Source of the DNA: a bacterium
GTDB taxonomy: Bacteria; Patescibacteriota; Andersenbacteria; UBA10190
Reading direction: 5' to 3'
NCBI GenBank assembly: GCA_043811915.1
Contig: JBDRMS010000006.1
Span: 22,870-86,869 of the forward strand
Length of the DNA: 64,000 nucleotides
The translations under genes were made by a program, and so were the position numbers. Below, piece by piece: positions 1 through 50,118 of this stretch; within the stretch, counting starts at the first letter, position 1, and the number at the start of each line of letters is the position of its first letter. Below the pieces are notes generated by a model. The model did no database searches, was not told where the DNA came from, and saw only the letters and a program-made list of their open reading frames with translations.

Positions 1-30
1 GGTGCACCTGGGTGTGGTGAAGAAGTAGAT

Positions 31-35323: not shown

Positions 35324-36055
35324 ATGATAGCGCAGGGAGTTCCCCCACCAGATTTACCGCTGTCGTCTGATACGGCGGGGCAGGCGCCGAAGCCGCCGGT
35401 TGCCAAAGAGCCTGGCGGTGGTTTTGATGCTCCGGATCCGTTTATGGCGGGAGAAAAGGGAGGGAGTGAAAAGCCGGAGAGCATGGTTCAAAATACACCA
35501 CCACCGAGTATTGCTGAAGCGTCTCCGCTTGCCCCAACCACCTTTCGTCAACCGGAGAAGCCGCACCGGACTCGTCGCCGCATTGTGCTGGCAATTGGCG
35601 GCTTGGTGGTATTGATTTTGATTTCTGCCTTGGTGGTAGTGGCTGTCCGTTTCTTTTTAGCCACTGAAGATGCTCTTCTGCCGGAGGAGGAACCTGTTTT
35701 ACCGATGGAGGAAGAGAATACACCGCCGGCACCGACGAGTGATTCTGAAAATGCCGTGCTGGACGATGATGGTGACGGCTTGACGGCGGCAGAGGAAAGT
35801 TTTTATGGGACGGATCCGGACGTAGCTGATACGGACGGTGATGGGTTCAACGATGGCGAGGAAGTGCGAGCTGGTTTTGACCCATTAGGGCCCGGGAAGC
35901 TTGATTCCGATAACGATGGTTTTCCTGATCCTGATGAAAGAGAGTTTGGCTCTGATCCGTTTAACCCTGATACCGATGGGGATGGTTACAGTGATGGTGA
36001 TGAAATTCAAAATGGGTTTAATCCATTAATACCATCACCGGGCGACAAACTTTAA
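35324..36055 (+). CDS. secreted/membrane-anchored protein with Pro-rich linker and thrombospondin type-3-like Ca-binding Asp repeats
   Basis: 243 aa. TM helix ([22 protein letters not shown]) followed by four DxDxDGxxDxxE units ([48 protein letters not shown]). Confidence 0.5.
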
Positions 36056-39459: not shown

Positions 39460-40866
39460 GTGCGAGCTTTTTTAGTGGTTTTATTGTTGGCCTGGTTGGT
39501 TGGCGTTGCGTTGGGGATAGCGGGACTATCTGTGGTAGTGATGTTATTGGCGGCGGCGGCGTTTGGTTTGGGAGCCGTGCGGCATTGCTTTCAACTAGCT
39601 ATAACTACTGCGTTGTTGATCTGTTTGGGGTATGTGTGGGGCGGTTACGCGGGCATTTCCGGAATAGGCGATTGCAATTTTGAGCCGGGGGCGACAGGCG
39701 GGATTATCGGTCAGCCGCGAATTGAGGCAGAGAGAGTTTTGGTAGTAATACAAAGTGAACATAGTTGTCGGGCGCTGGTTACGACTGGTCGCTTTAGTGA
39801 ACTGGAAGAAGGAGATGTGCTCGAACTAACTGGCGGGCAGGTGCAATCACTTCAGGAAGTGCGGGATTATTCTGCGGGTTATGCTGGATATTTGGAGCGG
39901 CGGGGGATTAGTGCGACGTGGAGATACCCAAATATTAATGTGGCTCAGCCAAGCAGTAATTGGACAAATATGTTGCATGACAGAGTGCGAGAGCGGGTCA
40001 CATCATTGTTCATAGAGCCAGACGCCAGCGTAGTGCTGGCGGTGTTGCTGGCCGAGAAGGGCACGTTGCCGGATCAGTTGGTGGAACAGTTTAGGACGAC
40101 TGGCGTCAGCCATGTCTTAGCTATTTCCGGCCTGCATATATCGTTATTAACCGGTATGTTGCTGGCGGTGTTGATGGCGTTGCCGCTGGCACCACGGGTG
40201 CGGACGGTCGTGGTACTTGCCTGGTTGTGGTCCTATGTTGTTTTTATTGGATGGCCGACTTCGGCGACCCGGGCGGCTGCTTTCTGGACTATTGCGCTGG
40301 TGGCGTTACAACTGCACGTTTTGGTTAGCCTGCCGACAATTTTGTTGCTGGCGGCAACTGTGCTGGTTTCTTTGGATCCCTTGTTTTTATTAGATGTTGG
40401 TTTTCAGCTTTCGATTAGTGCAGTGGCGGGGATTTTTATAGTGTTGTTTTTAACGCGTGATTTGCCTAAGCGGAGCTGGGTTCTTGATTTAACATTGGTT
40501 TCCCTGGGGGCCTGGTTAGCCACGGGCCCAGTGATTGCCTATCATTTTGGCAATGTTGTTTTGTCAGGCGTAATGACGAACTTGCTAGTTGTACCTCTAG
40601 TGCCGGCGTTGTTGGTGTTGGCTGTGGTGGCGCTGCTGCTGTCGCTAGTATTTATGCCAGCGGCAATGCTGATGACCTGGTTGACGCATGGCGTTATCGG
40701 TTGGATTGATTGGGCTACTAGCCTTATTTCCGCCCAGCCTGGCCTTTTTTATGAAGGAGTAAATGTGCCGGTGTGGTCGGTGTTTGTCTATTATCTAGTT
40801 ATGATCGGTCTAGGCGGAGTGGTTTTGCGGTATCAGAAGCGTAACTGGCGGGAGATATGGCAATGA
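39460..40866 (+). CDS. comEC: ComEC/Rec2 DNA-uptake channel, membrane competence domain
   Basis: 468 aa polytopic. Competence-domain signature TGVSHVLAISGLHISLLTG. Confidence 0.75.
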   Translation: MRAFLVVLLLAWLVGVALGIAGLSVVVMLLAAAAFGLGAVRHCFQLAITTALLICLGYVWGGYAGISGIGDCNFEPGATGGIIGQPRIEAERVLVVIQSEHSCRALVTTGRFSELEEGDVLELTGGQVQSLQEVRDYSAGYAGYLERRGISATWRYPNINVAQPSSNWTNMLHDRVRERVTSLFIEPDASVVLAVLLAEKGTLPDQLVEQFRTTGVSHVLAISGLHISLLTGMLLAVLMALPLAPRVRTVVVLAWLWSYVVFIGWPTSATRAAAFWTIALVALQLHVLVSLPTILLLAATVLVSLDPLFLLDVGFQLSISAVAGIFIVLFLTRDLPKRSWVLDLTLVSLGAWLATGPVIAYHFGNVVLSGVMTNLLVVPLVPALLVLAVVALLLSLVFMPAAMLMTWLTHGVIGWIDWATSLISAQPGLFYEGVNVPVWSVFVYYLVMIGLGGVVLRYQKRNWREIWQ

Positions 40867-41777
40867 AAGAGCAGAGGGCAGAGATTAAAGATAAAAGTTA
40901 CGGGCTGGAAGCTGGGGTCTTGATTTTGATTATTATTTTGCTGCTGCTGGCAGTGGTGCCGGGGGTGGAGGATAAAGTGGTTTTTCTGGATGTGAGGCAA
41001 GGAGACTCTATTCTTTTGCAAAGTAAAACTAATCAAGTATTGATTGACGGTGGACCGGGGATGACGGTATTGCGTCGGCTGGGGGAAGAAATGCCGTGGT
41101 TCGACAGAAGAATTGAGGTGGTGGTACTAACTCATCCCCAACGAGATCACATGGAAGGGTTGTTGCATGCGCTGGACAGATATGAAGTGGGAATGGTGCT
41201 GCTACCAAAAATTGCTCATACCTCGCAAATGCAGGAGGCGTGGCTGAAGAGAATTACCAGTAAGGGAATTGCTTATCGTTTTGCCTGGGCAGGCGAAAAG
41301 ATTGTTGCGGGAGATATGATGATGACAATATTGGGGCCGTTTGACACTGAAGCGGCCAGGGCAGCAGCGCGAGCCAATTTGAATAATGTGGCAGTGGTGG
41401 CGCGAGTGGACTATGGCGGGATGTCTTTCCTGCTAACGGGGGACATTGAGAAGCGGATGGAGAGGATGTTGGTGTTGGAGTATGCGCGCGCCTCCTCACC
41501 AAGGGTTTTCCCGGCACGCGCTGCGAATGTCCTCGACGTTGATGTTTTGAAGGCCGGGCATCACGGCAGTAAGACTTCTACTAATGAGATATTGATTGAC
41601 AAGGCGAAGCCGGCGGCGGCGGTAATATCGGTGGGGGCTGATAATAAGTTTGGCCATCCTCATCCGGATGTACTGGCGCGTCTGGGCGATATACCGGTTT
41701 GGCGGACGGATGAAGCGGGATCGATTGGTTTTAAGTTGATGGATGATGGGCGGTGGATAATTGATGTTGACGGGTGA
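40857..41777 (+). CDS. ComEC C-terminal metallo-beta-lactamase-fold domain encoded as a separate overlapping ORF
   Basis: 306 aa. VLLQSKTNQVLIDGGPG...VVVLTHPQRDHMEGL HxHxDH-type MBL motif. Overlaps the upstream ComEC ORF by 10 nt in a different frame. Confidence 0.7.
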   Translation: MAMKEQRAEIKDKSYGLEAGVLILIIILLLLAVVPGVEDKVVFLDVRQGDSILLQSKTNQVLIDGGPGMTVLRRLGEEMPWFDRRIEVVVLTHPQRDHMEGLLHALDRYEVGMVLLPKIAHTSQMQEAWLKRITSKGIAYRFAWAGEKIVAGDMMMTILGPFDTEAARAAARANLNNVAVVARVDYGGMSFLLTGDIEKRMERMLVLEYARASSPRVFPARAANVLDVDVLKAGHHGSKTSTNEILIDKAKPAAAVISVGADNKFGHPHPDVLARLGDIPVWRTDEAGSIGFKLMDDGRWIIDVDG

Positions 41778-41798: not shown

Positions 41799-41925
41799 AA
41801 CCGGTAGATGTTGTTTTTAAAGTTTGATCAAAAGGGATAAGTGAAGTGGGTGTAACTCCCACGCTGTGCCGCAACGGTAACCCCGCCTTTAGGCGGGGGA
41901 GTCCGATCCTTATCCGGTGTGTTAA
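41799..41925 (+). ncRNA. candidate cobalamin (B12) riboswitch
   Basis: Matches the remembered cobalamin-riboswitch core: GGGATAAGTGAAGTGGGTGTAACTCCCACGCTGTGCCGCAACGGTAA (GGTG.AA.TCC...GCTG.CCGCAAC.GTAA). A GC hairpin CCCCGCC-ttta-GGCGGGG and an AGTCCG B12-box-like segment follow. ACCGGT at both ends can close a P1 helix. The element sits directly upstream of the DUF4430 gene. Confidence 0.55.
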
Positions 41926-42004
41926 TTATTATTTAGCTTCCGAGCAGGGGCGCAAAGAAAGAATATTTGTCTCCTTGCTCTGGAAAATCAAGAAAGGAGA
42001 TTTT

Positions 42005-42472
42005 TTGTTAAAAGAGAAAAAAATTTATCGGGTGCGGGTTGAGATAGTAACGCTGTTGATATTGGTGCCGCTGGTGCTGGTGCTGGGGGCGGTGTTGAGT
42101 AGTTGGCCGCAAGACGCTGAAGAAAGTAAGCCGGCTGTTGCAGGCGAGGCACGACAAGTAGTGACGCTGAATATTCAGGGTCCTGGGGAAGTTATGGTGT
42201 ATGAGGTGGCTGTTGAGGGTGAAGCAACTGTTCGGGAGGTGTTAGAGGGGGCAGTTGTGCGAAGCGGCCTACTGCTTGACGTAAAGGACTACGGAGAGGA
42301 GTTGGGAATTTTTGTGGAAGCGATTAACGGGGTAGCAGGAGATGCCGGTCGCGGCACTTACTGGCATTTGTATATCAACGACGTATTGTCGCCGGTGGGG
42401 GCATCAACGGCCAAAGTGATGCCGGGCGACAGGATAACCTGGAAATATGAAAAACAGCATGAAGAAAATTAG
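42005..42472 (+). CDS. membrane-anchored DUF4430 (transcobalamin-like beta-domain) protein
   Basis: Start chosen at TTG 42005, preceded by AAAGGAG (41993-41999). The six-frame ORF start at 41846 would run through the riboswitch and hairpin. Has a signal anchor, then VTLNIQGPGEVMVYEVAVEGEATVREVL...GIFVEAINGVAGDAGRGTYWHLYINDVLSPVGASTAKVMPGDRITWKYE, which fits the DUF4430 pattern (G.FV..ING......W.Y.VN........Y.L..GD.I.W.Y). Confidence 0.55.
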   Translation: MLKEKKIYRVRVEIVTLLILVPLVLVLGAVLSSWPQDAEESKPAVAGEARQVVTLNIQGPGEVMVYEVAVEGEATVREVLEGAVVRSGLLLDVKDYGEELGIFVEAINGVAGDAGRGTYWHLYINDVLSPVGASTAKVMPGDRITWKYEKQHEEN

Positions 42473-44321
42473 TTTACTGGTAGTTTGTGTAGTGGGAATA
42501 GCCTGGGGCGCGTTGACGTTACAGGCGGCCGGGGAAGCAACTGTTGATTTAAGAATAGAGGGGAGCGAGAGCACAGTGTTTGCAAGGCCGGTTACAGTGT
42601 CGGATTGCAGTATTGCAGATGTAGGAGGAGTTGAGCACGAAATGTCAGGGGTGGCAGCGTGCGCTCTGGCAAAGGCGGCGGAGCAGAGCAGTTTCGAGAT
42701 GGAATTCAAGGATTTTGGCTTCGGTTTGTTTCTGGACAGAATTGGTTCGGATAGTACACCGGATGACTTTTCACAGAGCTGGTCTTTTTGGACCAATGAC
42801 AGCCCGGCCAGCGTGGGAGTTGACACCTACGAGGTGGAAGAAGGGGATAACTTATTACTGGCTTTTTCCGCCTGGCCGGCAGTGCCGCTGCGAGTGACGG
42901 GACCGGATGCGGCCGAGGCCGGCGAGACCATTACTTTTCTGGTAGAGAAGCGTGTAGGGGAATATGACGATAGCTTTATCTGGCAGGGCGGGTGGCAGGC
43001 GGCAGAAAATGCGATTTTGGATGTGGGAAGTAATGAATACCAGGTACCCGCTGACGGCGTGGTTAGAGTGACACTGGATAGCCCAGGGACAATAGCAGTG
43101 CAGGCGCGGGGAGAGGGACTGGTGCGCAGCAGCAGGCATGTAGTAGAAGTGGCGGCAGTGGTGGCGAGTCCGAGCGCGGAACCGACTGTGTCGCCAAGTC
43201 CGAACCCTAGTCCTTCATCCAGCAATAGCTCATCACCAAGCCCAAGCGTGGTGCCGGTTAGTGTTAATATGCGGCAAGACAGCGCGGGGCGGGCGCTTGT
43301 CTATCTGCGCGGGCAGCAAAGCAGTGATGGCACCATTGGCGGCTCAATGACGTCGGCCTGGAGCGCGATGGCTTTTGGGGCTGATTATCAGAGGGCACAA
43401 AATATTATGAAAGGCGGCGCTTCTTTGCTGGATGGATTAGAACAGGCTGTCTTGAGCAGTGCCACTGATGTGGAGCGGCAAATAATGGCGGTGCGGGCGG
43501 CGGGCATTAACCCAAGGTCATTTGCTGGCAGTGATTTGGTTATGGAATTAAAAAGTTATTATCGACAAGGTCAATTTGGTGAGGAGAGCCTGATTAATGA
43601 TGATGTGTTTGGTATATTGGCACTGTTGGCTGCCGAAGAGCCGATAGAATCGCCGGAAATAAGGGGGGCAGTAAAGACTGTGCTGTCTGCCCAGAAGTTT
43701 GACGGATCGTGGGATAACATTGATATGACGGCGGCGGCGGTGCAGGCGTTGAATGTTTATGCGAAACGGGGGGGCAGTATAGCAGTCGGTGGTGCAGTAA
43801 TCAGGGCGCGTGATTATTTACGTAATAGTCAGGACAAGTATGGTGGCTGGGGAGAAAATTCGGCCACGACGGCCTGGACTATTCAGGCGGTGGTGGCGCT
43901 GGGGGAGAAGGTGGATAGTTGGAAAAATAATGATGGCATGACGCCATGGCAGGCCTTGCTTCGTTATCGGAATAATAACGGTGGTTTTGGCTGGAGAGAA
44001 AAGAATGATGTGTCGGCATTTATGACGGCATACGCGGTGCCGGCGTTGCTTGGCCGGGCATGGCCGATTACTTTATTGGAATTGGAGACATCCTTGGCCA
44101 CATCTCCATTGCCGGCGGTGGCTGGTGCTGTGACGGCGATAGCTACCGTGGCGCCGGTAAGTTCTCTAGTGCCAGAGGTGGTATCGGAAGAGGTGGCTAA
44201 TGTTAATGTTGGTGATGATTTTGTTGCGCCCAGGGCGGTGGACCGTAACTTTGCGATTACTTTATTTGGTTTAGCTAATTTGGGTATTGGGGTGGCGGTG
44301 GCTAGAATGATTTTGATATGA
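42447..44321 (+). CDS. secreted DUF4430 + alpha/alpha-toroid (prenyltransferase/terpene-cyclase-like repeat) protein with C-terminal membrane anchor; transcobalamin-like architecture
   Basis: 624 aa. Signal peptide, N-terminal DUF4430-like beta domain (TVDLRIEGSESTVFARPVTV...SWSFWTNDSPASVGVDTYEVEEGDNLLLAFS) and a Ser/Pro linker. Repeated aromatic/Gly-Trp motifs of alpha/alpha-toroid repeats follow (SDGTIGGSMTSAWSAMAF, KYGGWGENSATTAWTIQAV, NNGGFGWREKNDVSAFMTAYAVPAL), then a C-terminal hydrophobic anchor. Confidence 0.55.
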   Translation: MKNSMKKISLLVVCVVGIAWGALTLQAAGEATVDLRIEGSESTVFARPVTVSDCSIADVGGVEHEMSGVAACALAKAAEQSSFEMEFKDFGFGLFLDRIGSDSTPDDFSQSWSFWTNDSPASVGVDTYEVEEGDNLLLAFSAWPAVPLRVTGPDAAEAGETITFLVEKRVGEYDDSFIWQGGWQAAENAILDVGSNEYQVPADGVVRVTLDSPGTIAVQARGEGLVRSSRHVVEVAAVVASPSAEPTVSPSPNPSPSSSNSSSPSPSVVPVSVNMRQDSAGRALVYLRGQQSSDGTIGGSMTSAWSAMAFGADYQRAQNIMKGGASLLDGLEQAVLSSATDVERQIMAVRAAGINPRSFAGSDLVMELKSYYRQGQFGEESLINDDVFGILALLAAEEPIESPEIRGAVKTVLSAQKFDGSWDNIDMTAAAVQALNVYAKRGGSIAVGGAVIRARDYLRNSQDKYGGWGENSATTAWTIQAVVALGEKVDSWKNNDGMTPWQALLRYRNNNGGFGWREKNDVSAFMTAYAVPALLGRAWPITLLELETSLATSPLPAVAGAVTAIATVAPVSSLVPEVVSEEVANVNVGDDFVAPRAVDRNFAITLFGLANLGIGVAVARMILI

Positions 44322-44878
44322 AGAAGGATTACTTGCTCTGGTTTTTCCTGGCGGCATTGATAGCGGGAGCGGCAATGGTGCGGGTGGGTAGTCATTTTCC
44401 CAACGCCACGCCGGTGGCGGCTGTTGCCTTATTGGCTGGAGCTGGTTTGAAGACGCGCTGGGCGGCGGCGGTGCCGCTGATAGCGATGGCTGTATCTGAC
44501 GTGTTTATTGGTTTTTCTCCATGGCCGATTACGGTGGCGGTTTACGGGTCGTTTGCCTTGATAGCATTGTTGGGCCGCTGGCTTGAGAACAATAGAGCGG
44601 CGGGGCGGGTAGTCGCGGCGGCGCTAGCTTCGTCTATATTATTTTATCTGATTACTAATGGGGCGGTGTGGTGGTTCAGCGGTCTTTATGCGCACACGGT
44701 GGATGGGCTTATCCTTTGTTATTACCTGGCCATACCATTTTTCCGCAATACGATGCTGGGAGACCTGGCTTATACGGGCGGCTTGTTCCTGGTGGTGGAA
44801 TATGTGCCGACGTTAGCGAACCTTTTCCACAATTTTCACAACAAAATTAAAATTCACTATGGTACACTGGTCGGATGA
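44318..44878 (+). CDS. small polytopic membrane protein, candidate vitamin-transporter substrate-binding (ECF-S / BtuM-like) component
   Basis: 186 aa, about 5-6 TM helices. Size and topology are typical of energy-coupling-factor S components. The functional call rests on gene context only. Confidence 0.35.
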   Translation: MKKDYLLWFFLAALIAGAAMVRVGSHFPNATPVAAVALLAGAGLKTRWAAAVPLIAMAVSDVFIGFSPWPITVAVYGSFALIALLGRWLENNRAAGRVVAAALASSILFYLITNGAVWWFSGLYAHTVDGLILCYYLAIPFFRNTMLGDLAYTGGLFLVVEYVPTLANLFHNFHNKIKIHYGTLVG

Positions 44879-47193
44879 ATTATTTTAAAACACTGCAGAA
44901 AGTAAACATCAGGTTTTCGCTTAGTGAGGGAGACGTGGCGAATATTCCTTCAATTCGTAAGCGGGATGGCCGAGTGGTGTCGTTTTCTCTGGACAAAATA
45001 TCGCAGGCAGTGTTGAAGGCGTTGAAAGTGACAAAAGAGGGGGATGAGTCGGATGCTGACTTTATTGCCAAGAAGGTGGCACGAGATGTATTGAAATTGA
45101 GGCGAGCCAGCCACAGTGAGCGGTTTGTGCCGGATGTGGAAATGATTCAGGATCTGGTAGAGGAAGAGTTGATGTTGCAGGATTTTGTCAAAACGGCCAA
45201 GGCTTACATTTTATACAGGGAGAAACATGCGGAGCTGCGGGAGATTAAGGGAGTGGTGCCGGCTCGAGTGAAGGATCTGGTGGCCAGGAGTAGAAAATAT
45301 TTCCGAAACCCGTTGGCCGAGTTTATTTACTTTCGCACTTACGCGCGCTGGATTGATGAAGAAGGACGGCGCGAGACCTGGATTGAAACGGTGGATCGCT
45401 ACCTGGACTTTATGAAGGAGAATATAGGTGATCGTTTGAGTGAAGAGGAATACAGCGAAGTGCGCCAGGCTATTTTGAATCATGAGGCGATGCCTTCCAT
45501 GCGGTTGATGCAGTTTGCGGGTAAGGCGGCGCGAAATACCAACGTATGCACCTATAATTGTTCTTACATTGCCCCTTCCAATTGGCAGGATTTTGCTGAG
45601 GTAATGTATGTGTCGATGTGCGGGACAGGAGTCGGTTTCTCAGTAGAGAGTCAAAACATACAGGCCCTGCCTCAGATTAAGAAACAGACGGGAGAGCAGC
45701 TGCCGAAACAGGTGGTGGATGACAGCAAGGAAGGCTGGGCTGATGCGCTGGCGCTGGGCTTAAACACGTGGGCTGACGGCAAAGACATTAAGTTTGATTT
45801 ATCAGGACTAAGGCCAGCCGGAGCCAGATTGAAAACGATGGGCGGCAAAAGTTCCGGTCCGGAGCCGCTGCGCCAGCTGCTGGAGTTCACGCGCAGCAAA
45901 ATGTTGAATAAACAGGGCAAGCGGCTGTCGAACATCGATGCCCACGACATCCTGTGTAAGATTGGTGATTGTGTGGTGTCTGGCGGAGTGAGACGCAGTG
46001 CTTTGATTTCTCTGTCTGATCTGGATGATACCGATATGCGTGATGCCAAGAAGGGACAGTTTTATGTGCAGGAGCCGCAGCGAAGTCTAGCTAATAATTC
46101 GGCGGTGTATCATGAGAAGCCGCTAACCACCGACTTTATTGATGAGTGGGTGGCGCTGATGAAGAGCGGCAGCGGTGAGCGGGGTATATTTAACCGGGGA
46201 AATTTATCGCAGACGCTGCCCAGGCGTCGGTTGGAACGGCTGGTCAAGGGTGAGGAGCCGCAGTGGGGCACAAACCCGTGCGGAGAAATTATCCTGAAGT
46301 CGAAGCAGTTTTGTAACTTAACGGAAGTAGTGGCGCGGCCGAAGGATACATTGGAAAACTTGAAGCACAAGATAAAAATAGCGTCGATTCTAGGTACCTA
46401 CCAGGCGACACTGACTAACTTTCCTTATTTGTCCAAAGAGTGGCAGGAGAACTGTGAGACGGAACGGTTACTGGGTGTTTCTATCACGGGGCAGTGGGAC
46501 TGTGAGACGGTGAGGGATAAAAAAGTATTGCAGCAGTTGCGGGAAGAGGCGGTGGCGACAAACAAAGAATACGCGGAGAGGTTTGGTATTCCTCAGGCAA
46601 CTTGCGTGACCTGTGTCAAGCCTTCCGGCACGGTATCGCAGGTGGTGGACTGTGCTTCGGGTATGCACCCGCGGCACGCCAGGTATTACATTCGCCGGGT
46701 CCGTATTTCGGCTACGGACGCACTGTTTATGATGTTGAAAGATCAAGGCGTGCCTTATTATCCGGAAGTTGGTCAGTCGGTGGAAGATGCCAGCACATAC
46801 GTGTTTGAGTTTCCGGTTAAGGCACCGGAAGGAGCGGTGGTGAAGGATGACCTCACGGCGTTGGAGCAGCTTTTGCACTGGAAAATGGTCAAGGAAAACT
46901 TTACGGAGCATAATCCGTCGGTAACTATTTCGGTGGGAGACGATGAGTGGATTCGAGTGGCTGACTGGTTGTATGATAATTGGGAGTTGGTGGGAGGACT
47001 GTCATTCCTGCCGCGGACAGACCACGTGTATCAGCTGGCGCCCTATGAGGAGATAGACAAGGAACGTTACGAAGAGTTGCTGAAAGGAATGCAAGACATA
47101 GACTATGCCAAAATCGTTACTTATGAAAAAATGGATGACACGGATGTGAAGATGGAACTGGCCTGTGCGGCGGGGGTGTGTGATATAGGGTGA
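44875..47193 (+). CDS. nrdJ: class II adenosylcobalamin-dependent ribonucleotide reductase with N-terminal ATP-cone
   Basis: 772 aa. ATP-cone (VVSFSLDKISQAVLKALKV), catalytic NPCGEI motif (WGTNPCGEIILKSKQFCNLTEV), a thiyl-radical Cys loop and C-terminal redox cysteines (ACAAGVCD). Confidence 0.85.
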   Translation: MNYFKTLQKVNIRFSLSEGDVANIPSIRKRDGRVVSFSLDKISQAVLKALKVTKEGDESDADFIAKKVARDVLKLRRASHSERFVPDVEMIQDLVEEELMLQDFVKTAKAYILYREKHAELREIKGVVPARVKDLVARSRKYFRNPLAEFIYFRTYARWIDEEGRRETWIETVDRYLDFMKENIGDRLSEEEYSEVRQAILNHEAMPSMRLMQFAGKAARNTNVCTYNCSYIAPSNWQDFAEVMYVSMCGTGVGFSVESQNIQALPQIKKQTGEQLPKQVVDDSKEGWADALALGLNTWADGKDIKFDLSGLRPAGARLKTMGGKSSGPEPLRQLLEFTRSKMLNKQGKRLSNIDAHDILCKIGDCVVSGGVRRSALISLSDLDDTDMRDAKKGQFYVQEPQRSLANNSAVYHEKPLTTDFIDEWVALMKSGSGERGIFNRGNLSQTLPRRRLERLVKGEEPQWGTNPCGEIILKSKQFCNLTEVVARPKDTLENLKHKIKIASILGTYQATLTNFPYLSKEWQENCETERLLGVSITGQWDCETVRDKKVLQQLREEAVATNKEYAERFGIPQATCVTCVKPSGTVSQVVDCASGMHPRHARYYIRRVRISATDALFMMLKDQGVPYYPEVGQSVEDASTYVFEFPVKAPEGAVVKDDLTALEQLLHWKMVKENFTEHNPSVTISVGDDEWIRVADWLYDNWELVGGLSFLPRTDHVYQLAPYEEIDKERYEELLKGMQDIDYAKIVTYEKMDDTDVKMELACAAGVCDIG

Positions 47194-47729
47194 TGTTGTA
47201 TACCAGGCAGGGGGACAGTGGTGCGACGTTCACCTGTCCGGCCGGGTCCAGAGTGTCGAAGCGGTCTAAATTAATTGAGGCGCTGGGGGCTCTGGATGAA
47301 ATAAATTCCTGGCTGGGGTTTTGTAAGGCGCGGTTGCCGGAAGAGGTCGGGTCGCTAAAAGATATCATTCATGGATTGCAGGAGGATTTGTTTATAGTGC
47401 AGGCGGAGCTGGCCGGGGCGGACAAGACAATAACGGCTGACAAAGTAAAAAGGATGGAGGTTCTGACGGATCAAATAGAACAACAGTTGCCGAAGATAAA
47501 TACTTTTTTTATCGCGGGGGAGACGGAGATATCTGCGTCTCTGGATGTGGCGCGGGCGCTGGCGCGCCGGGCCGAGCGGCGGGTGGTTGACGCAGTGGAG
47601 GCAGGGGAAGCGCAGGTGGGGAATGACACGAAAGCTTTTCTCAATCGCCTGTCCAGTGTGCTGTACGTCTTGGTTCGCTTCGCTAACCACAAACTAGGCG
47701 TCACCGAAAAATCACCAACCTACAGATAA
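47190..47729 (+). CDS. pduO: PduO-type ATP:cob(I)alamin adenosyltransferase
   Basis: 179 aa. N-terminal YTRQGDSGATF..GSRVSKRSKLIEALGALDEINSWLG matches the PduO/MMAB-type adenosyltransferase signature. Confidence 0.8.
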   Translation: MMLYTRQGDSGATFTCPAGSRVSKRSKLIEALGALDEINSWLGFCKARLPEEVGSLKDIIHGLQEDLFIVQAELAGADKTITADKVKRMEVLTDQIEQQLPKINTFFIAGETEISASLDVARALARRAERRVVDAVEAGEAQVGNDTKAFLNRLSSVLYVLVRFANHKLGVTEKSPTYR

Positions 47730-50025: not shown

Positions 50026-50118
50026 GGGGACGTAGATCAATTGGGAGATCACTCCAGCTGGCCGCAAATGTGCACTATGCGGCAGGAGAGGTTAGGGGTT
50101 CGATTCCCTTCGTCTCCA
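50026..50118 (+). tRNA. aberrant tRNA-like element (~92 nt): canonical acceptor, D- and T-arms but an expanded bulged hairpin in place of a standard anticodon arm
   Basis: Acceptor GGGGACG/CGTCTCC (one G.U) with discriminator A. D-arm GATC-AATTGGGA-GATC. T-arm AGGGG-TTCGATT-CCCTT. The central 43 nt form CTCC..GCCGCA-aatgtgcacta-TGCGGC..GGAG rather than a 5-bp/7-nt anticodon arm. Confidence 0.4.

Follow-up and report, generated by a model that had tools for sequence, protein, structure and literature searches.

The closest described relatives of the locus analysed here are bacterial proteins in which an SLBB domain is fused to a toroid. Burroughs, Balaji, Iyer and Aravind reported such fusions in both domain orders, described a paralogous second gene, and predicted a function in B12 scavenging (2007, Biol Direct 2:4, PMC1796856). 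For the animal carrier transcobalamin, the isolated β domain retains cobalamin, and separate α and β domains assemble only when cobalamin is present (PMC5599065), which makes a permuted or split arrangement of these domains mechanistically plausible. On the membrane side, CbrT is a characterised B12 transporter subunit from the nrdJ-cbrS-cbrT-pduO cluster of Lactobacillus delbrueckii (Santos et al. 2018, PMC5997447; PDB: 6FNP). The ECF-like operon Lsa1836-1840 of Lactobacillus sakei encodes split transcobalamin-like α and β subunits, Lsa1839 and Lsa1840, for which heme uptake has been proposed (bioRxiv 10.1101/864751). The literature that we searched on DUF4430, DUF6580, SLBB/cobalamin and Patescibacteria/cobalamin yielded neither an experimental study of a bacterial member nor ligand-binding data for bacterial homologues.

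We examined a 624-aa protein encoded in a 64-kb stretch of DNA, hereafter the window, from an uncultured, ultra-small bacterium of the Patescibacteria (CPR). It is homologous to transcobalamin, intrinsic factor and haptocorrin, with its domains permuted into the order β-grasp, Ig-like spacer, toroid, and it is probably a membrane-tethered, cell-surface capture protein for corrinoids (vitamin B12). Its folds and topology signals, together with the riboswitch, gene content and conservation of its operon, are established here.

The operon and its conservation

The operon consists of an AdoCbl riboswitch followed by five genes that are joined by overlapping stop and start codons:

41815..41962, + strand: AdoCbl (cobalamin) riboswitch aptamer, 5′ of the first gene (Rfam RF01482)
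42005..42472, + strand: stand-alone DUF4430 (transcobalamin β-type) protein, 155 aa, with an N-terminal membrane segment (Pfam DUF4430, 57.1 bits)
42447..44321, + strand: 624-aa protein, open reading frame confirmed as described
44318..44878, + strand: DUF6580 polytopic membrane protein, candidate cobamide permease (Pfam PF20221, 148.8 bits)
44875..47193, + strand: class II (adenosylcobalamin-dependent) ribonucleotide reductase with an N-terminal ATP-cone (NCBIfam, Pfam)
47190..47729, + strand: PduO-type ATP:cob(I)alamin adenosyltransferase (Pfam Cob_adeno_trans, 150.3 bits)

The five-gene cluster recurs in a 44%-identical relative, where the flanking genes are unrelated. The family of the 624-aa protein belongs to Patescibacteria; gene conservation was counted over 82 related patescibacterial loci and sequence conservation over 43 family sequences. 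Of the 82 loci, 70 contain the small DUF4430 gene, 63 have a homologue of it immediately upstream, and NrdJ is found in 19. No ABC ATPase, sought as a Walker A motif plus an ABC signature in one reading frame, was found in the window, and an ABC-type reading frame lies within 5 kb in five of the 82 loci and is adjacent in none, by a motif scan crude enough to miss the ABC_tran genes known in locus L004. An ECF energising module was likewise not seen in the window.

The gene preceding that of the 624-aa protein had been described in an earlier note, made from the sequence by itself, as a stand-alone anchored DUF4430 domain, and its Pfam score and N-terminal membrane segment bear this out. The listed reading frame of 208 aa begins at a GTG at 41846, inside the riboswitch; the true start is probably the TTG at 42005, which has AGGAG 5 nt ahead of it. 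A hydrophobic segment occupies residues 60-89 of the 208-aa reading frame according to hydropathy. Its paralogous counterpart within the 624-aa protein is the segment of residues 80-136, with which it shares 27% identity (E = 2e-05).

The riboswitch

The riboswitch element of the window matches RF01482 over its full length (1-149) with 44.6 bits and an E-value of 6.1e-07, the gathering score being 50. Equivalent elements are located at the same position in loci L001, L003 and L005, and a custom model places a riboswitch at the operon 5′ end in 52 of the 82 loci. When six loci were re-tested with Rfam the element was confirmed in all of them, five scoring 53.6-58.8 bits and so above the gathering score. 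In independent lineages, DUF4430 and DUF6580 genes follow other cobalamin riboswitch classes, RF00174 or RF01689; in L086 and L088, DUF6580 is linked both to DUF4430 and to these classes. A relative is placed in Nanoarchaeia by a single NCBI record.

Folding of the RNA from 41940 to 42015 gave a stable hairpin (−22.7 kcal/mol, z = −2.9), and neither a U-tract terminator nor clear sequestration of the ribosome-binding site was found in this segment. A promoter and terminator scan of the operon returned counts no higher than in shuffled controls. Promoter-like matches at 44824-44863, directly ahead of nrdJ, are a hint only. It is odd that a reductase requiring AdoCbl sits behind an AdoCbl riboswitch in one operon, and this counts against the corrinoid capture function that we favour.

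Structure of the 624-aa protein

From N- to C-terminus the protein is composed of six parts:

42447..42533, + strand: signal peptide region, residues 1-29 (hydropathy window 5-29; model helix 2-24)
42534..42881, + strand: β-grasp (DUF4430) domain of the transcobalamin type, residues 30-145
42882..43157, + strand: Ig-like / PKD / Fn3-like β-sandwich spacer, residues ~146-237
43170..43238, + strand: disordered Pro/Ser-rich linker, residues 242-264, SPSAEPTVSPSPNPSPSSSNSSSPSPS (pLDDT below 50)
43263..44066, + strand: α/α toroid, residues ~273-540 (full-length model)
44235..44321, + strand: C-terminal transmembrane anchor, residues ~597-624 (hydropathy; model helix 597-623; conservation in 43 sequences)

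The earlier note had proposed that a DUF4430 β-domain and a toroid share one chain in an order reversed with respect to transcobalamin, and that the chain is secreted and tethered at its C-terminus. The Pfam score, the structure model and Foldseek agree with the first of these points, and the order is indeed β domain (30-145) before toroid (273-540). A signal-like segment at residues 5-29 and a hydrophobic helix at ~597-623 are what a secreted, tethered protein would carry. The β-sandwich (146-236) and the disordered Pro/Ser linker (242-264) had escaped that first reading.

Residues 77-141 match Pfam DUF4430 (PF14478) with 23.7 bits and an E-value of 6.8e-05, 0.1 bit short of the gathering score of 23.8. 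Across the family the domain is found in 36 of 43 members at E-values up to 0.01 (best 1.1e-08), and all ten orthologues that were rescanned one by one exceed the gathering threshold. Structure comparison of the N-terminal domain agrees with the assignment: the domain is a β-grasp with an extra β-hairpin after the helix (CATH 2.170.130.30).

The full-length structure model has a pLDDT of 87.3 and contains a single toroid, of the α6/α6 kind that defines the transcobalamin family. Conserved residues in the toroid region are W305, D341, R344, N384-D386, D426, N471, T475, W477, W516 and Y529. The structure prediction and Foldseek comparison that the earlier note had suggested thus found the α/α toroid, with human transcobalamin (2bb5_A) matched at an E-value of 3e-06; the best structural matches of the toroid, ahead of transcobalamin, are terpene-cyclase-type barrels. 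The placement of the β domain relative to the toroid is of low confidence (pTM = 0.52), and a cobalamin sandwich geometry is a prediction that goes beyond the model. In Pfam, the 624-aa protein has no match to PF01122 (Cobalamin_bind) at E-values up to 0.1; eight of the 43 family members do match it, and orthologue P0017 reaches 25.5 bits for a gathering score of 25. A search of PDB sequences with the family profile recovered terpene-cyclase toroids and no transcobalamin at E-values up to 10, so the link to transcobalamin rests on structure comparison and Pfam.

At the N-terminus, the signal peptide is possibly cleaved after LQA. We also considered a lipoprotein and rejected it, since the residue at position −1 of LVVC is not a small one. 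At the other end, a disordered stalk (residues 550-591) precedes the anchor, in which N611, G613, G615 and R620 are conserved among the 43 sequences.

Downstream genes and the link to B12

The sole PDB sequence match of the DUF6580 protein is CbrT (6fnp_A), with an E-value of 0.048 from the single sequence and 0.006 from a profile, and hhalign gives a probability of 65% for the pair. The DUF6580 protein matches PF20221 and not PF12822, the family matched by the CbrT fragment. These comparisons weakly suggest a distant similarity to the ECF S-component CbrT. The reductase scores 309.2 bits against NCBIfam TIGR02505 RTPR (cut-off 340) and contains the Pfam domains ATP-cone, RNR_Alpha, Ribonuc_red_lgC and RNR-II_ins_dom. 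The adenosyltransferase reaches 141.5 bits against TIGR00636, exceeding the cut-off of 108.45.

The riboswitch and the downstream B12 genes had not been noticed in the earlier note. It is because an AdoCbl riboswitch lies ahead of the operon, and DUF6580, an AdoCbl-dependent reductase and a PduO adenosyltransferase lie downstream, that the 624-aa protein can be tied to B12. The assignment of this protein and its paralogue to B12 is strongly supported, chiefly by this operon context.

Proposed mechanism and alternatives

We infer that the protein binds cobalamin, that the ligand induces docking, that the cofactor is handed to DUF6580 and that the riboswitch is an off-switch. After Sec export the C-terminal helix would keep the toroid close to the membrane, and the β domain would occupy the free N-terminus, set apart by the flexible Pro/Ser linker and the Ig-like spacer. 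As in transcobalamin, the β domain may take the nucleotide face of the corrinoid, and the ligand would then drive its docking on the toroid, with the cofactor sandwiched between the two. Either this β domain or the one on the separately anchored upstream paralogue could be the partner that docks. DUF6580 would import the cofactor, the PduO enzyme would adenosylate it and the class II ribonucleotide reductase would use it; with enough cofactor in the cell, the AdoCbl riboswitch would lower expression of the operon.

The alternative that survives best, although we consider it unlikely, accepts that B12 is bound and assigns the protein to surface sequestration or storage, or to stripping the carriers of a host, instead of an obligatory feeding of DUF6580, which could act alone or have another role. 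A life attached to hosts, as is assumed for CPR bacteria, speaks for such a function, as does the fact that only 38 of the 82 loci have DUF6580 detected within 5 kb. Furthermore, L086 has DUF4430 and DUF6580 without the toroid protein, and the animal homologues bind so tightly that proteolysis is needed for release (PMC5997447). Against this, DUF6580 is immediately downstream in 30 of those 38 loci, with coding regions overlapping or nearly so, and the conserved polar and Gly residues of the anchor helix suggest a specific intramembrane partner.

A ligand other than cobamides, either another tetrapyrrole such as heme or a different soluble compound, appears very unlikely. There is precedent in the transcobalamin-like subunits of L. 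sakei that are tied to heme uptake (bioRxiv 10.1101/864751), and the reviewers of Burroughs et al. warned that ligands besides B12 may be bound in this clade (PMC1796856). However, three classes of cobalamin riboswitch precede these genes across lineages, the operon includes an AdoCbl-dependent reductase and a cobalamin adenosyltransferase, and no heme-related gene is found in it. That the toroid instead has an enzymatic activity like that of terpene cyclases, prenyltransferases or glycoside hydrolases, acting on envelope lipids or glycans with the β domain as an accessory, is highly improbable: compared with class II terpene cyclases (squalene-hopene cyclase, drimenyl diphosphate synthase; PDB: 8paj, 8zg0), its motif I383-N384-D385-D386 is an incomplete DxDD without the first Asp, it has one toroid where squalene-hopene cyclases have two, it is predicted to be extracytoplasmic, lying between signal peptide and C-terminal anchor and away from isoprenoid diphosphate substrates, its genomic context is entirely one of B12, and toroids of the transcobalamin family share this fold class, with PF01122 recognised in eight of 43 members.

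Beyond corrinoid capture by the 624-aa protein itself, a broader picture can be drawn only tentatively, and as a whole it is doubtful. The three genes behind the riboswitch, encoding the anchored β domain, the β/Ig/toroid protein and DUF6580, might form a self-contained cobamide acquisition machine of CPR bacteria that works without an ECF module, its DUF4430-DUF6580 part perhaps being present in other small-genome lineages. On this view DUF6580 might be a solitary B12 permease of a new class, the vitamin might be drawn by the surface pair from the surroundings or directly off a host cell, and the permuted proteins might represent the bacterial stock of the animal B12 carriers.

Significance

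With their tiny genomes, CPR bacteria are believed to rely on other cells for cofactors. Ribonucleotide reductase is an enzyme of DNA-precursor synthesis, and since the operon carries a B12-dependent version of it, acquisition of B12 may bear on the growth of these cells. The locus offers a candidate uptake route, marked by a riboswitch and made of two transcobalamin-like surface proteins and the DUF6580 membrane protein. If cobalamin binding is true, a computational prediction of 2007 would be confirmed, two widespread domains, DUF4430 and DUF6580, would be assigned a function, and the descent of animal B12 carriers from bacterial surface proteins would gain support. The finding by itself reveals no new principle.

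Comparison with known systems

Like the proteins of Burroughs et al., the 624-aa protein has a signal peptide and a transcobalamin-type β-grasp with a hairpin after the helix, and as in their Bacillus example the α/α toroid is C-terminal to the β domain. A paralogous extracellular SLBB gene is part of the operon in both cases (here 42005-42472), with predicted B12 scavenging. Their proteins are mostly from Gram-positive bacteria and carry cell-wall anchors, whereas ours belong to Patescibacteria and end in a membrane helix, and the Ig-like spacer is an insertion seen in the 624-aa protein. The operons also differ, in that theirs contain CbiO/CbiQ-type ABC genes, whereas in ours the conserved membrane partner is DUF6580 and few loci have an ABC ATPase close by.

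Relative to the animal carriers (PF01122 plus PF14478; PDB: 2bb5, 2pmv, 4kkj), the domain order is reversed, a β-sandwich is added, the protein is tethered to the membrane instead of soluble and has no PF01122 match, and cobalamin binding is predicted. The neighbourhood resembles the nrdJ-cbrS-cbrT-pduO cluster in that a small membrane component for B12 uptake, a candidate in our case, adjoins an AdoCbl-dependent reductase and a PduO adenosyltransferase. Unlike ECF-CbrT, DUF6580 falls outside PF12822, its similarity to CbrT is weak, and the window shows no ECF module. With the L. sakei operon the locus shares extracellular transcobalamin-like α and β modules beside a small membrane S-type component; there the domains are separate, ECF ATPases and a T component are present and heme is the proposed ligand, whereas our locus has fused domains, a riboswitch ahead of them and B12 enzymes as neighbours.

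In summary, both the architecture and the idea of B12 scavenging were already published in 2007, and the present protein adds a member to a kind already described. What is newer is that DUF6580 is a consistent partner, that an ABC (ECF) ATPase is rarely found nearby, and that the system is spread across the CPR.

Architecture and predicted structure of the 624-residue protein

The ORF at 42447..44321 (+) encodes, as the earlier note had it, a protein of 624 amino acids, with a signal-like N-terminal segment (residues 5-29, ending in LQA/AG) and a hydrophobic extreme C-terminus (601-624) in the hydropathy profile. The Pfam matches of this single sequence are weak, namely DUF4430 (residues 77-141, 23.7 bits vs a gathering score of 23.8), SQHop_cyclase_C (369-430) and Prenyltrans (456-537), yet they are upheld across the family. 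The homologue set comprises 46 sequences with 38-71% identity, three of them shorter (388-544 aa), all from MAGs labelled uncultured Parcubacteria, Andersenbacteria or "bacterium". In an alignment of the protein with 42 homologues (43 sequences), DUF4430 is matched by 36, SQHop_cyclase_C by 35 and PF01122, "Eukaryotic cobalamin-binding protein", by eight, with the orthologue P0017 above the PF01122 gathering score (25.5 vs 25 bits).

The AlphaFold2 model built from this alignment has a mean pLDDT of 87.3; its pTM of 0.52 overall makes the mutual placement of the domains unreliable.

Segments of the 624-residue protein in the AlphaFold2 model
Residues 2-24: helix (signal peptide)
Residues 31-142: mixed alpha/beta domain
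Residues 146-236: all-beta domain
Residues 242-264: disordered Pro/Ser linker
Residues 273-540: alpha/alpha toroid
Residues 550-591: disordered stalk
Residues 597-623: helix (membrane anchor)

A Foldseek search with the model matched human transcobalamin (2bb5_A, E 3e-06), and the beta domain shows a beta-hairpin after a helix, the feature that sets off the transcobalamin clade within the SLBB superfamily (PMC1796856). The predicted structure therefore holds both halves of the transcobalamin fold, beta before alpha. This agrees with the earlier note, which had proposed a DUF4430 beta-domain and a toroid on one chain, in reversed order and tethered by a C-terminal hydrophobic segment; the alpha/alpha barrel that it expected is present. 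The note's B12 reading is supported, with the likeness to transcobalamin taken as homology and not as the analogy or convergence that the note offered.

All 43 family members share two cysteines of the beta domain, C54 and C72 (42606-42608 and 42660-42662), which could form a disulfide of the exported domain or contact a ligand. The C-terminal helix has polar and glycine positions that are conserved in the same alignment (N611, G613, G615 and R620) and suggest a specific membrane partner.

Riboswitch and operon

The strongest evidence for the B12 reading is the riboswitch and operon, which lie beyond the coordinates that the earlier note gave. Directly upstream, 41815-41962 is an end-to-end match to the Rfam AdoCbl riboswitch RF01482 (44.6 bits, E 6.1e-07), absent from a gathering-threshold scan because the curated cut-off is 50. 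The mechanical ORF of the small DUF4430 protein (41846-42472, 208 aa) opens with a GTG that falls within the riboswitch aptamer. A TTG at 42005, five bases past an AGGAG, is probably the true start, and gene callers may thus make this gene too long. From this TTG the product is 155 aa long, with an N-terminal membrane segment and DUF4430 (57.1 bits), which bears out the description of the preceding gene as a stand-alone anchored DUF4430 protein. The beta domains of this product and the 624-residue protein are paralogous (27% identity, E 2e-05). Three further genes follow with 4-base overlaps, and the gene after the last of them is convergent.

Genes downstream of the 624-residue protein
44318-44878, +: DUF6580 polytopic membrane protein (148.8 bits)
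44875-47193, +: class II adenosylcobalamin-dependent ribonucleotide reductase with ATP-cone (TIGR02505, 309 bits)
47190-47729, +: PduO-type cob(I)alamin adenosyltransferase (Pfam and TIGR family matches)

In gene order, the operon thus runs from two candidate surface binders through a candidate permease and the B12-using enzyme to the maker of its coenzyme form. The AdoCbl-requiring reductase and the adenosyltransferase share an overlapping-gene operon behind an AdoCbl riboswitch (41815-47729), so high AdoCbl would reduce expression of its own user enzyme. Promoter-like matches at 44824-44863 were not above chance in a promoter scan of the operon.

Just upstream, 39460-41777 holds two overlapping ORFs (468 and 306 aa) whose translations, judged by eye, resemble a membrane competence domain and a metallo-beta-lactamase-type domain and could be the pieces of a split ComEC-type protein. 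Farther away, 35324-36055 encodes a 243-aa protein in which a membrane segment precedes a series of acidic D-x-D-x-D-G-x-x-D motifs that resemble calcium-binding thrombospondin type-3 repeats. The tRNA match at 50026-50118 spans 93 nt against a 71-position Rfam model and scores lowest of three tRNAs (47.3 bits), which points to an insertion or an extended variable arm. Across 1-64000 every 2-kb window but one has a strongly positive GC skew (0.10 to 0.34), and the + strand carries most large ORFs.

Conservation across loci

Scanning GTDB at one genome per species yielded 218 relatives, of which the best 80 are Patescibacteria MAGs. Several TPA_asm MAG records with the same Parcubacteria-type operon (L017, L024, L037 and others) are titled "uncultured Gammaproteobacteria" or "Candidatus Saccharibacteria", which look like generic or wrong labels. 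The 44%-identical orthologue P0029 lies in the same five-gene cluster with entirely different flanking genes, and the first three genes are kept around three other orthologues.

Features within 5 kb at 82 non-redundant loci
Small DUF4430 paralogue: 70/82 (immediately upstream in 63/82)
DUF6580: 38/82 (immediately downstream in 30/82)
NrdJ: 19/82
PduO: 10/82

A custom covariance model trained on four of the riboswitch sequences places an element at the 5' end of the genes, in coding-strand orientation, at 52 of the 82 loci, and detects none in the nrdJ-first loci L015, L018, L019 and L025. All six re-tested loci match RF01482 itself, five above its gathering score. In each of the loci L071 (75-219, -) and L047 (770-917, -) another riboswitch-like element lies several kb away from the operon and in the opposite orientation; it presumably controls other B12-related genes.

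Two loci carry other riboswitch classes. L086 reads NrdR, TSCPD-type ribonucleotide reductase, AdoCbl-II riboswitch (RF01689, 40.4 bits vs a gathering score of 36.5), DUF4430, DUF6580; L088, on an 882-kb contig, reads classical Cobalamin riboswitch (RF00174, 51 vs 31.5 bits), DUF4430, an 819-aa DUF4430-plus-toroid protein, DUF6580. The same protein families thus stand behind three cobalamin riboswitch classes, RF01482, RF01689 and RF00174, which argues strongly for a role of these proteins in cobamide handling.

DUF6580, the candidate membrane partner

A literature search found no characterised member of DUF6580, which NCBI names "putative transport protein" and for which there are 1219 family matches; one, a single NCBI record, is assigned to Nanoarchaeia. 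DUF6580 genes repeatedly adjoin DUF4430 genes (44318-44878 here, 5001-5534 in L086, 5001-5510 in L088). Among solved structures DUF6580 has a single relative by sequence, 6FNP chain A (E 0.048 with a single sequence, 0.006 with a five-sequence profile). The 6FNP entry holds the ECF-CbrT vitamin B12 transporter (PMC5997447), and its 182-residue chain A is taken as CbrT, the B12-specific S-component, because a fragment of it has a hit to the Pfam family of ECF S-components. The relation is distant (hhalign probability 65%) and CbrT's own Pfam family is PF12822, not DUF6580, so we term DUF6580 CbrT-like in role rather than a CbrT family member. The family appears to be one of so far unrecognised cobamide permeases, with only a distant likeness to CbrT.

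A crude motif scan found no ORF with both ABC ATPase motifs in the 64-kb window, and one within 5 kb at only 5 of the 82 loci. Since shared ECF modules are often encoded elsewhere, uptake independent of an ECF module is no more than possible.

Proposed mechanism

From the observed folds, export and anchoring signals, riboswitch, and operon content with its conservation, we infer a plausible mechanism of capture, docking and hand-off. The 624-residue protein would be exported and then held by its C-terminal helix, with the toroid membrane-proximal and the beta domain at the tip of an Ig-like spacer and Pro/Ser tether. A corrinoid would be caught by a beta domain, either its own or that of the upstream paralogue; ligand binding would drive docking of that domain onto the toroid, and the cofactor would pass to DUF6580. 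Transcobalamin offers a direct precedent: its beta domain on its own purifies Cbl-bound, unlike its alpha domain, and the two, separately expressed, associate only on Cbl addition (PMC5599065). Reversed order or even separate chains should therefore not block function.

It is possible that B12 is instead sequestered or stripped from a host, with no obligatory hand-off to DUF6580. A ligand other than a cobamide has a precedent in heme, whose uptake was proposed for the split transcobalamin-like alpha/beta proteins of the L. sakei Lsa1836-1840 operon (bioRxiv 10.1101/864751), but the riboswitches and B12 enzymes at the present loci speak against it. The terpene-cyclase matches suggest an enzymatic toroid, against which stand an incomplete DxDD motif (INDD), a single barrel and an extracytoplasmic location.

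Comparison with known systems

The SLBB superfamily was defined by Burroughs, Balaji, Iyer and Aravind in 2007, who described the bacterial transcobalamin-clade proteins as mostly secreted, usually borne by organisms without B12 synthesis and likely to scavenge B12, and animal transcobalamin as probably acquired from such bacteria (PMC1796856). [quoted passage not shown] Architecture and role were thus predicted there, and the idea of the earlier note is correct but already published as a prediction; to a specialist the architecture is unsurprising and the novelty modest. Our literature search found neither a biochemical test of any bacterial member nor an account of B12 uptake in Patescibacteria. 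What sets the present family apart is an Ig-like spacer, a membrane anchor at the C-terminus, an RF01482-type riboswitch and, in place of the CbiO/CbiQ genes in the operons of Burroughs et al., a conserved DUF6580 partner. The locus is a clean, testable system for the function of DUF4430 and DUF6580 and for B12 acquisition in the CPR, and its operon follows the same logic as the nrdJ-cbrS-cbrT-pduO cluster of CbrT (PMC5997447).
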